Source: a virus
Virus record (IMG/VR): IMGVR_UViG_3300045988_076685
Coordinates: 117,466-181,465 of that record
Reading direction: 5' to 3' (one strand)
DNA: 64,000 bases
Shown here: in pieces, positions 35,153 through 44,272 of the stretch
How positions within the stretch are numbered: the stretch's first letter is position 1
Layout: each line of letters opens with the position of its first letter
Made by a program: the position numbers and the translations under genes
The notes under the pieces: model-generated
What the model saw: the letters and a program-made list of their open reading frames with translations, nothing else
Databases searched by the model: none
Told to the model about the DNA's origin: nothing

Positions 35153-35232
35153 GTGCGAGATGTGGGAATCAAACCCACGCAAGCCTTCTGGTTGGAAGCC
35201 AGATATGCGCCTTCAGCTACACTAATCTCGCA
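35153..35232 (-). tRNA. tRNA-Gly (anticodon UCC)
   Basis: Hand-folded: acceptor GCGAGAU/AUCUCGC, anticodon arm ucugg-cuUCCaa-ccaga, T arm guggg-uuugauu-cccac; variable region slightly long. Confidence 0.6.
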
Positions 35233-36174: not shown

Positions 36175-36258
36175 TTGTCTAGGAGAGATTCGAACTCCCG
36201 AAGCTAAATAGCGGCAAATTTACAGTTTGCTGTGGTTGACCACTTCACATACTAGACA
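36175..36258 (-). tRNA. tRNA-Tyr (anticodon GUA), type II
   Basis: Acceptor UGUCUAG/CUAGACA, A73, anticodon arm gcaaa-cuGUAaa-uuugc, long variable arm with gcua-uuu-agc hairpin, T arm gggag-UUCGAAU-cucuc. Confidence 0.75.
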
Positions 36259-36348: not shown

Positions 36349-36421
36349 AGCTTCAAGTAGGATTCGAACCTACGACCTGCACTTTACAAGAGTGCTGCAC
36401 TACCACTGTGCTATTGAAGCT
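36349..36421 (-). tRNA. tRNA-Thr (anticodon UGU)
   Basis: Acceptor AGCUUCA/UGAAGCU, anticodon arm gcacu-cuUGUaa-agugc, T arm guaggUUCGAAUccuac. Confidence 0.75.
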
Positions 36422-36565
36422 AAAATAAAGGCGAATATGGCATTAGACGGGCGAACTATCATGACCATATTCTAATAATACATTGAGCTATCAGGCATAC
36501 TCGTGGATCGCCACCGCTACCTCTAACAACCGCCTAGTTAACAGCTAGGTCCTCTCCATTATTTG

Positions 36566-36642
36566 CGGGGTATAAGGGATTCGAACCCTTAGTTTTACTA
36601 GAGTGACAGTCTAGTTCCCTTACCAACAGGGCTTAATACTCC
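36566..36642 (-). tRNA. tRNA-Asp (anticodon GUC)
   Basis: Anticodon arm cuaga-cuGUCac-ucuag (classic Asp loop), T arm aagggUUCGAAUcccuu; one A-C mismatch in acceptor. Confidence 0.65.
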
Positions 36643-36713
36643 AGGCGCCTCTTGTGTACACATTTCTTTTCGAGAAGGTAGCTAACCTTAGAAATAAGAG
36701 GCATATATTATTG

Positions 36714-36794
36714 CGTCTAGACTGGGATTCGAACCCAGGAACCTTTCGGGGCAAGTTAACAGCTTGCTGCCGTTGACCACTTGGCTATCTAGAC
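36714..36794 (-). tRNA. tRNA with Asn anticodon (GUU) on a type-II, tRNA-Tyr-like body, G73
   Basis: Acceptor GUCUAGA/UCUAGAC, D arm gcc-aaguggucaa-ggc identical in loop to the Tyr tRNA, anticodon arm gcaag-cuGUUaa-cuugc, 12-nt variable arm, T arm cugggUUCGAAUcccag. Confidence 0.6.
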
Positions 36795-43850: not shown

Positions 43851-43940
43851 AATTAACAGTTAAAATTAAACAAAAATCCCTGAACTATAATAATAGTCCA
43901 GGGATTAAAAACAAATAATAAAAACAGTTCTATGAACTAG

Positions 43941-44272
43941 TGGAGATGAGGGGAGTCGAACCCCTGTCACTCCGATTTGCATCAAAACATTCTTACAGCA
44001 TAGGTTTTAAAGACTATCCTTGTCTGCTAGGGTTGACAAGATTAACATATTGTCAACTTCCACCACTCTGTTCCTAAAGTATACAGAGAACTTACAAAAG
44101 AAATGGAAAATAGTGCACCTTTCTGTTCACAAGCAAGTGCTGCTCGGCTTCTCAGGCAGCAGCCTGATAAGCAGGAGTCATATTAATAACTCTAGCGATT
44201 ATTGTTTTGTTGTCTCTCCAACTGTCTTGCTGTGTTCCTTATCTCCTCGAAGTTCAAAACCAAAACATCCCC
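43941..44272 (-). ncRNA. ssrA: tmRNA (ssrA), phage-encoded
   Basis: 5' end GGGGAUGUUUUGGUUUUGAACUUCGAGG matches conserved tmRNA 5' consensus. 3' end has T arm GGGGUUCGACUCCCC and acceptor strand CAUCUCC-A pairing with the 5' GGGGAUG. Internal frame AAUAAUC|GCU AGA GUU AUU AAU AUG ACU CCU GCU UAU CAG GCU GCU GCC UGA encodes tag ARVINMTPAYQAAA. Confidence 0.7.

Follow-up and report, generated by a model that had tools for sequence, protein, structure and literature searches.

The viral DNA analysed here, a stretch of 64,000 nucleotides (the window; positions 117,466 to 181,465 of IMG/VR record IMGVR_UViG_3300045988_076685), carries at 36714–36794 on its minus strand a tRNA gene that combines an asparagine anticodon, GUU, with a long variable arm. 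By the textbook, bacterial tRNAs with such an arm (type II) are only those for Leu, Ser, Tyr and Sec. This raises the question as to what this gene, tRNA(GUU), does: whether it is a working Asn decoder, a tRNA charged with another amino acid or a relic, and how an Asn anticodon came to sit on a type II body. Our preferred answer, to which we give a probability of roughly 65%, is that tRNA(GUU) is a functional tRNA reading AAU and AAC, with an Asn identity set on a Tyr-type body, charged by asparaginyl-tRNA synthetase (AsnRS) and descended from an old remoulding of a tRNA-Tyr gene. A first-pass annotation, made from the letters alone, had proposed a Tyr scaffold with Asn identity, and this core idea is supported by Ser/Tyr-like profile scores, by a D arm and a variable arm that recur in phage Tyr genes (L460 and L477, respectively; L-numbers denote pooled viral loci, L014–L503), and by the Asn-type anticodon loop and discriminator base, G73.

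ARAGORN calls the gene tRNA-Asn(gtt) at 36713–36794 on the minus strand, and the Rfam tRNA model (RF00005) matches 36714–36794(-) with 56 bits (gathering score 29; E = 1e-10). The hallmarks of that family are all present, namely a 7-bp acceptor stem, D, anticodon and T arms, the conserved U8, A14, G18-G19 and U33, and the T loop. Read 5' to 3', the gene parses as GUCUAGA UA GCC-AAGUGGUCAAC-GGC A GCAAG-CUGUUAA-CUUGC CCCGAAAGGUUC CUGGG-UUCGAAU-CCCAG UCUAGAC G, with the D loop AAGUGGUCAA(C), a standard 7/5 acceptor/T branch and U2-A71 as the second acceptor pair. CCA is not encoded, and CAAUAAU comes next on the 3' side. ARAGORN and the parse both confirm the CUGUUAA anticodon loop and the earlier hand fold; the strand needs correcting, as the gene lies on the minus strand. 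Its parts are as follows.

36714–36794, minus strand: whole tRNA(GUU) gene, 81 nt, G1 to G73 (ARAGORN, Rfam, sequence, covariation)
36788–36794, minus strand: 5' strand of the acceptor stem, GUCUAGA, pairing with 36715–36721 (UCUAGAC); compensatory change at 6 of 7 pairs
36769–36785, minus strand: D arm GCC-AAGUGGUCAAC-GGC, with a stem of 3 bp and a mismatch (A13/C22), the form known from type II tRNAs of the Tyr type
36751–36767, minus strand: anticodon arm GCAAG-CUGUUAA-CUUGC (ARAGORN, parse)
36756–36762, minus strand: 7-nt anticodon loop CTGTTAA, a form typical of tRNA-Asn
36758–36760, minus strand: anticodon GUU
36739–36750, minus strand: variable arm CCCGAAAGGUUC, 12 nt, with a CC/GG stem, a GAAA tetraloop and three unpaired 3' nucleotides (UUC), of Tyr-like geometry
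36722–36738, minus strand: T arm CUGGG-UUCGAAU-CCCAG; compensatory change at 3 of 5 pairs
36714, minus strand: discriminator G73, an Asn identity element

To which isotype does the body belong? We scored tRNAs with masked anticodons against profiles for 20 isotypes, built from phage tRNAs with long-armed Asn genes and the gene's own lineage excluded; these are crude sequence profiles, which classified most of the ordinary tRNAs of the window correctly. tRNA(GUU) scores 23.9 as Ser, 23.7 as Tyr, 18.7 as Cys and 14.7 as Lys, with Asn outside the top four. Its close relatives score about 26 as Tyr, 23 as Ser and 18 as Asn, and L129 reaches 32 as Tyr. The mismatch between body and anticodon, for which isotype-model scoring had been suggested as a check, is real, and the body is of the Ser/Tyr type. 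Its architecture is more specific. The 12-nt arm and 3-bp D stem differ from the 4–5-nt variable loop and 4-bp D stem of type I tRNAs, and the 2-bp variable stem, three unpaired 3' nucleotides and U2-A71 do not fit tRNA-Ser, for which at least 4 bp, no more than two unpaired 3' nucleotides and G2-C71 are expected. Bacterial tRNA-Tyr, by comparison, shares with tRNA(GUU) the 3-bp D stem, the AAGUGGUCAA D loop, a short-stemmed 12–14-nt variable arm with three unpaired 3' nucleotides and, as seen in L477, the 81-nt architecture. tRNA(GUU) departs from it in having GUU instead of GUA and G73 instead of A73 (the base in 90% of phage Tyr genes), and its CUGUUAA loop and G73 are those of bacterial tRNA-Asn. 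U1-A72 is absent: G1-C72 is invariant in the sub-family described below, and is also found in ~43% of ordinary phage Asn genes.

Whole parts of the body can be found in Tyr genes. The D arm GCCAAGUGGUCAACGGC is identical in the phage Tyr gene L460 and the 12-nt variable arm in the Tyr genes L477, L483 and L497. L477, a gene with A73-CCA on an unrelated contig, aligns with tRNA(GUU) without gaps over all 81 positions at 75% identity. A scan for the D loop AAGTGGTCAA followed by CTGTAAA or CTGTTAA gave, among the matches listed, 73 Tyr genes, nearly all with A73, and one new Asn gene, which marks this loop as characteristic of tRNA-Tyr in phages. A Tyr-type body, and a Tyr-type origin, is well supported by these comparisons. 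The T loop UUCGAAU, to which the first-pass annotation had also pointed, is indeed common to tRNA(GUU) and the tRNA-Tyr of the same array, but it is near-universal and carries no weight.

Is such a gene still in use? IMG/VR, scanned completely for the motif of the variable arm together with the T loop, contains 37 such loci, 20 of which, from several metagenomes, carry the Asn sub-family to which tRNA(GUU) belongs. The 13 distinct sequences of this sub-family align without gaps, with compensatory changes at 12 of the 22 cloverleaf pairs and 99.3% of cells paired. None of 500 shuffles reached this pattern, and slid registers fall to 19–46% paired. The anticodon loop, all 12 nucleotides of the variable arm, the T loop, G1-C72 and G73 are invariant, as is the D loop save for its two most variable positions. 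Compensated drift confined to stems, together with invariant loops and G73, indicates a functional gene and not a pseudogene; judged by this covariation, tRNA(GUU) is under purifying selection. That the gene is a pseudogene in decay, or what is left, unexpressed, of a duplicated Tyr gene, might be suspected from the missing CCA, from a promoter scan that was uninformative and gave no convincing promoter for the gene, and from some relatives whose array, with the flanks fetched, does not contain it. We find this hardly credible, as substitutions fall only in stems with their pairs compensated and the loops and G73 hold across metagenomes, and the 56-bit score against the tRNA model exceeds that of several ordinary tRNAs of the same array. 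The pseudogene that the first-pass annotation had held out as a possible outcome is therefore not borne out, the 13 relatives pointing to constraint.

The same CCCGAAAGGUUC arm also occurs at eight loci (L482, L484–L486, L490, L492, L494 and L499) in Tyr-like type II tRNAs with a UUC (Glu) anticodon call, some of them with an odd C33. These look like another isotype on the same scaffold.

Which amino acid is it likely to carry? In E. coli, GUU and G73 suffice to transplant Asn identity into tRNA-Lys; G73 has an identity role for tRNA-Asn and is an antideterminant for the tyrosyl- and leucyl-tRNA synthetases (TyrRS and LeuRS) (PMC9976931). On these elements of its sequence, tRNA(GUU) is most likely charged with Asn: a host AsnRS, reading mainly the anticodon and base 73, would attach it, and host enzymes would add the CCA end. 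The tRNA would then supply Asn decoding (AAU, AAC) to a phage of 30% GC. Only two codons are used more often than AAU (56 per 1000 codons) in this phage, in line with the earlier remark that this codon is abundant in an AT-rich genome.

The obvious concern is mischarging, by which seryl-tRNA synthetase (SerRS), which ignores the anticodon and accepts G73, would attach Ser, or TyrRS would attach Tyr, and AAU and AAC would be partly misread. It could be argued for from a body that scores about equally as Ser and Tyr, from G73 being the Ser discriminator as well (73–79% of phage Ser genes), and from the U73, as in some Ser tRNAs, of 10% of the wider class of long-armed tRNA(GUU) genes described below (among the matches listed). 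We nevertheless regard it as highly improbable. The arm stem has 2 bp and not the 4–7 bp of tRNA-Ser, three and not one 3' nucleotides are unpaired, and U2-A71 replaces G2-C71, while G73 and U36 count against TyrRS. Misreading of the third commonest codon would also harm the phage's own proteins, and a long-armed gene is the sole Asn tRNA in the T5-like coliphage SP15, where it occupies the Asn slot, and in MT835492, an unannotated 121.6-kb human faecal phage scaffold to which the window is 93% identical and in which it is the only tRNA-Asn among five tRNAs. More generally, SerRS, LeuRS and TyrRS separate type II tRNAs by arm length and orientation, and SerRS and LeuRS ignore the anticodon. 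We infer that, of the type II geometries, only that of a Tyr-like arm is "safe" for a tRNA given a foreign anticodon, since this anticodon and G73 then keep TyrRS out, so that charging would follow the anticodon in these tRNAs; such an arm may keep them from the anticodon-blind seryl and leucyl enzymes.

Several points weigh against an AsnRS-charged, Tyr-derived tRNA. The profiles tie Ser and Tyr for tRNA(GUU) itself (23.9 versus 23.7), and the scan behind the D-loop evidence had that very loop as its selection criterion. The related phages L374 and L431 are without the gene in the ~7–11 kb fetched around the array, so that it may be dispensable. Class II synthetases come to the tRNA on the side of the variable arm, so that a clash is conceivable. 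Finally, G1-C72 would block the GatCAB route, the only one for which U1-A72 is needed (PMC9976931), and our explanation consequently requires a host with AsnRS.

Where did the gene come from? The natural candidate as a donor lies in the same array:

36175–36258, minus strand: tRNA-Tyr(GUA), with A73, the same D loop and a 14-nt variable arm (ARAGORN, sequence, alignment)

The first-pass annotation saw in tRNA(GUU) a duplicate of this "adjacent" gene, remoulded by a single anticodon change plus a discriminator switch. The features that it listed are all there: a D stem of 3 bp, a D loop that this tRNA-Tyr shares without change, the 12-nt variable region, CUGUUAA in the Asn gene against CUGUAAA in the Tyr gene, and G73 against A73. 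The genealogy built on them, however, is not supported. In the direction of transcription, Asn is followed by Asp, a 144-nt spacer, Thr, Met and only then Tyr, so that three tRNA genes and the spacer separate Asn from Tyr, ~455 nt apart. The local Tyr is the window tRNA most similar to the Asn gene (score 32, 72% identity, with a next-best score of 19), but ~29% of aligned positions differ (71–72% identity), there are three indels, and the D, T and variable stems are different. The Tyr gene has three nucleotides (UAU), not two, between its acceptor and D stems, the extra one following A9, and its acceptor, which has U1-A72, is shifted in register by one (UGUCUAG/CUAGACA versus GUCUAGA/UCUAGAC). 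The closest Tyr body is instead that of L477, in an unrelated contig. Recent copying of the nearby Tyr gene via two point changes is not supported by these alignments. The most likely origin would be a phage tRNA-Tyr gene that underwent alloacceptor remoulding through A36 to U and A73 to G, probably as an old event followed by divergence.

The local Tyr gene is itself unusual. Among the pooled phage tRNAs, its best non-orthologous matches are long-armed Asn genes of its own lineage (69%), with other Tyr genes at no more than 67%. This could mean that descent ran the other way, from a long-armed Asn gene to the local Tyr, or that segments were exchanged or converted within the array; the extra nucleotide and shifted acceptor register of the Tyr gene, and the presence of the Asn sub-family in 20 loci from several metagenomes, would fit. 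We consider such a history unlikely, since this D loop and this variable arm are both common among ordinary phage Tyr genes (A73-CCA), which makes the Tyr state the commoner and probably the older context, and since the pooled sample was chosen for loci with long-armed Asn genes, which biases the comparison.

How unusual is an Asn tRNA of this kind? It had been put forward as a rare case, but more than 100 viral contigs and 291 GenBank records of T5-like phages carry long-armed tRNA(GUU) genes. The gene studied here is one member of a widespread class, and its interest lies mainly at that level. A degenerate IMG/VR scan (CTGTTAA, an 18–32-nt gap, then GGTTCGAATCC) gave at least 119 loci, and ARAGORN together with a structural parse recognised at least 128 long-armed tRNA(GUU) genes, at least 108 of them distinct, on ~115 viral contigs; our scans required one particular T loop. 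With the gap widened to include ordinary Asn genes, 10 of 120 loci were long-armed, or ~8%; this figure and those that follow for the 108 distinct genes refer to the matches listed. Acceptor and T stems are nearly all fully paired, and variable regions span 11–22 nt, with arm stems of 3–4 bp in 97 of the 108 and GNRA tetraloops in 44. G73 is found in 86–90%, compared with 89–97% of ordinary phage tRNA(GUU), U73 in 10%, and U1-A72 in ~57% versus 54% of ordinary genes. Long-armed and ordinary genes thus agree at their ends, which speaks for Asn identity. The arms compare with those of phage Ser and Tyr tRNAs as follows; Leu arms, as those of Ser, mostly have one unpaired 3' nucleotide.

Long-armed Asn: variable stem 3–4 bp; 3–4 unpaired 3' nucleotides in 61%; G2-C71 in 41%
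Phage Ser: variable stem 4–7 bp; mostly one unpaired 3' nucleotide; G2-C71 in 91%
Phage Tyr: variable stem mostly 3 bp; mostly three unpaired 3' nucleotides; G2-C71 in 67%

The GenBank records are those of T5-like Salmonella and Escherichia phages, in which an 83-nt long-armed tRNA-Asn is annotated just as "tRNA-Asn". In SP15 (L481) this form is the sole tRNA-Asn and lies in a Cys-Asn-Asp slot, whereas in T5 (L363, NC_005859 33877–34029) the same slot holds a type I tRNA-Asn; in many Salmonella phages, too, the slot is taken by the long-armed form. We had expected T5 itself to be a carrier; relatives such as SP15 are. No other indirect evidence speaks as strongly for the long-armed form working as a tRNA-Asn as this replacement of one form by the other in one slot. 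In T5, an annotated "tRNA-like RNA3" lies directly beside tRNA-Asn. A scan of bacterial and archaeal contigs, with one genome per species, gave ~12 genuine long-armed genes in the 120 pattern matches listed, as well as four archaeal intron-containing tRNAs. A bacterial origin of the class was rejected: among these matches, the long-armed genes occur only inside multi-tRNA clusters of the kind that phages carry.

When the 108 genes are scored without their anticodons, the best profile is Ser for 50, Tyr for 31, Asn for 16 and another isotype for 11; Leu-like bodies are almost absent. Within arrays, a long-armed Asn gene is often nearest to the local ordinary Asn or to a long-armed Cys; the local Tyr, which we had considered as the typical nearest relative, was so in 5 cases in 80-odd arrays, against 21 for the local ordinary Asn. 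Taken together, therefore, the members of the class do not simply descend from Tyr genes. As far as these sequences tell, it has several independent origins that share a Tyr-like arm geometry. For some members, an ordinary tRNA-Asn may simply have gained a hairpin in its variable loop: in L041, L100, L101 and L117 the long-armed Asn is nearest to an ordinary Asn of the same array (67–72%), 16 of the 108 score best as Asn, and the GNRA-capped hairpins (44 of 108) could be simple insertions. That tRNA(GUU) itself arose in this way, its Tyr-like features being convergent and without Tyr ancestry, is improbable, as the Asn profile lies outside its top four and ranks third in its close relatives, its 3-bp type II D arm and its variable arm are identical to those of Tyr genes, and its 81-nt architecture aligns with a Tyr gene without gaps. 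For tRNA(GUU) we thus stay with the remoulding of a Tyr gene.

Asn is not the only type I isotype with long arms. In the pooled phage tRNAs, arms of at least 10 nt occur in ~19% of Cys(GCA), ~22% of Ile(UAU) and ~7% of Thr(UGU) tRNAs, and also in Met, Val and Trp tRNAs; none was found in Ala, Gly or Phe tRNAs of these loci (L014–L503). The Ile(UAU) arms share a CCAGAUUAGG-like motif. The window itself encodes a second type I isotype on a type II body, tRNA-Trp(CCA) at 63498–63587(-). This gene is 90 nt long and has G73, a D arm resembling that of type II tRNAs and a variable arm of ~20 nt; with its anticodon masked it scores Cys/Ser-like and not Trp-like, and similar genes are present in L028 and L092. 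As a general rule for long-armed tRNAs of such isotypes, we tried descent from whichever type II isotype lies a single anticodon mutation away. It fits Asn (Ser/Tyr-like, with Leu-like bodies in 1–2 of 105), Thr(UGU) (Ser-like in 11 of 15) and Trp, but fails for Ile, Met, Val and Lys, which score Ser-like and not, as predicted, Leu-like. A literature search, with most subscription journals outside it and an earlier account possible, found no description of long-armed phage tRNA-Asn, and papers that use SP15 or T5 tRNA-Asn do not mention the arm; the class is apparently undescribed.

Why should a tRNA-Asn have a type II body? Remoulding may have left it behind, selection may have favoured it, or both, the two readings being compatible. 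As a leftover it would be easily reached, with GUA to GUU and GCU to GUU being single steps and Ser tRNAs already having G73. As an adaptation, an altered D loop and a protruding arm would hide tRNA-Asn from host anti-phage nucleases, which is compatible with the remoulding of a Tyr gene and would supply a reason for the arm while the elements read by AsnRS are kept. AriB, the nuclease of the PARIS system, has been proven to cut host tRNA-Asn(GUU), infection can be rescued by phage tRNA variants, and the predicted AriB dimer spans anticodon-stem positions 40/41 and D-loop U16-U17 (PMC12409363). This footprint is on the face where the variable arm emerges. Also in favour are the long arms on several kinds of body (Ser-like 50, Tyr-like 31, Asn-like 16), an arm sequence that stays invariant while stems drift, the replacement of U39 of the UAAU motif by C in tRNA(GUU), and the confinement of the long-armed form, among the matches listed from bacterial and archaeal genomes, to phage-like multi-tRNA clusters. 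The rescuing T5 tRNA-Asn, however, is an ordinary type I tRNA, the variable arm is never mentioned in the PARIS paper (PMC12409363), and a long arm is also seen on Cys, Ile(UAU) and Met tRNAs, none of them known to be attacked by PARIS. Escape through the UAAU motif had to be dropped, position 39 being no different in long-armed and ordinary phage Asn tRNAs. An adaptive role of this kind is, in our view, doubtful for tRNA(GUU).

A broader proposal, which we offer tentatively and hold to be somewhat unlikely, is that phages repeatedly, and from different starting genes, evolved type II Asn tRNAs (and less so Cys, Thr(UGU), Ile(UAU), Met and Trp tRNAs) as a selected design, in which a Tyr-like arm orientation would keep AsnRS charging, avoid SerRS and LeuRS, and leave the tRNA unrecognised by host nucleases, or by other factors, directed at ordinary tRNA-Asn. 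Phages would then routinely break the rule that confines type II in bacterial systems to Leu, Ser and Tyr (and Sec) tRNAs, and for a functional reason.

The surroundings of the gene are those of a large gut phage with 30% GC. The window covers a replication and nucleotide-metabolism region (DNA ligase, Dda-like helicase, NrdD, DnaB-like helicase, nicotinamide phosphoribosyltransferase), and ARAGORN finds 17 tRNA genes and one transfer-messenger RNA (tmRNA) in it, all on the minus strand. Stop-codon recoding was considered and set aside: reassignment of TAG or TGA barely alters open reading frame content and brings no improvement. The phage-encoded tmRNA, at 43938–44272(-), matches Rfam with 66 bits, has the tag peptide ARVINMTPAYQAAA and is kept in the relative L012. 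Two tRNAs, tRNA-Asp(GUC) at 36565–36642(-), 78 nt, and tRNA-Gly(UCC) at 35153–35231(-), 79 nt, have variable regions of ~8–9 nt, intermediate between type I and type II. A further ARAGORN call, "tRNA-Tyr(ata)" at 63908–63990(-), has a weak T stem and fits the tRNA model of Rfam (52 bits) only if 12 extra nucleotides are placed within or next to the anticodon loop, which may read UAU (Ile). At 63068–63139(-), Rfam finds an additional tRNA (35.7 bits), missed by ARAGORN, with a GUG (His-like) loop and a mismatched acceptor stem. Finally, the 144-nt spacer between tRNA-Asp and tRNA-Thr, 36421–36564(-), contains a perfect copy of an Asn anticodon stem-loop, CCUAG-CUGUUAA-CUAGG (hairpin at 36533–36549), and closes with a long hairpin and, after it, a U-rich tract. 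Over its full length it is 98% conserved at three loci of related phages (L374, L428, L431), two of which, L374 and L431, have it without the long-armed Asn gene in the stretch fetched. Neither ARAGORN nor Rfam finds a tRNA in the spacer, no Rfam family matches at E <= 10, and its fold is no better than that of shuffled sequence (z = -0.35); it could be a tRNA remnant or a decoy.

What, then, would tRNA(GUU) and its class add to what is known? They would be Asn decoders with a type II body; they make up ~8% of phage tRNA-Asn among the matches listed and have been annotated merely as "tRNA-Asn". If AsnRS charges them, it tolerates a long variable arm, which would be new information on tRNA identity, and tRNAs would be seen to switch isotype within phage tRNA arrays. 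Should the arm shield the tRNA from defence systems that cut tRNAs, this would be a new principle of counter-defence. Cultured T5-group coliphages such as SP15 carry a member as their only tRNA-Asn, making both questions testable in E. coli.

Among known systems, the allo-tRNAs, with 8/4 or 9/3 acceptor/T branches and mostly Ser identity (Mukai et al., PMC5389517), likewise have an unusual architecture, come from metagenomes and phages and show a body and an anticodon that disagree; tRNA(GUU), in contrast, has the standard 7/5 branch. The phage tRNAs that escape tRNA-targeting defence include T5 tRNA-Lys, tRNA-Thr and tRNA-Asn variants that escape PARIS AriB (PMC12409363) and anticodon-loop variants (PMC10264068). 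As with the former, tRNA(GUU) is a phage tRNA-Asn(GUU) that differs from the host type in regions contacted by AriB, but the T5 variants are type I, with point changes near positions 39–41 and 16 and no variable arm. A long variable arm with the anticodon of a type I isotype is reportedly also found in the nematode nev-tRNAs of Hamashima et al. (2012), type II tRNAs with Gly or Ile anticodons that have Leu identity, are charged with Leu and mistranslate. Unlike these, tRNA(GUU) has lost its Tyr determinants (A73, A36), has the full Asn set and bears an arm unlike that of Ser or Leu. The nearest parallel is alloacceptor remoulding, which Saks et al. are said to have described in 1998 for the recruitment of an E. 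coli Arg tRNA gene to Thr, and which is also known from mitochondrial tRNAs. Anticodon shifts have been described in eukaryotes as well (PMC3923123). In remoulding as in tRNA(GUU), the body is of one isotype and the anticodon, here with the discriminator, of another, and the synthetase of the new isotype reads mainly the anticodon. The known cases, however, keep the structural class, whereas tRNA(GUU) would put a type II body to use for an isotype that is type I in bacteria. The event would also be old, the best Tyr matches reaching 75% (L477) and 71% (the local Tyr, with indels) and not being one or two bases away, and the phenomenon recurs across many phage lineages. With these differences, tRNA(GUU) is most likely an alloacceptor-remoulded, phage-encoded tRNA.

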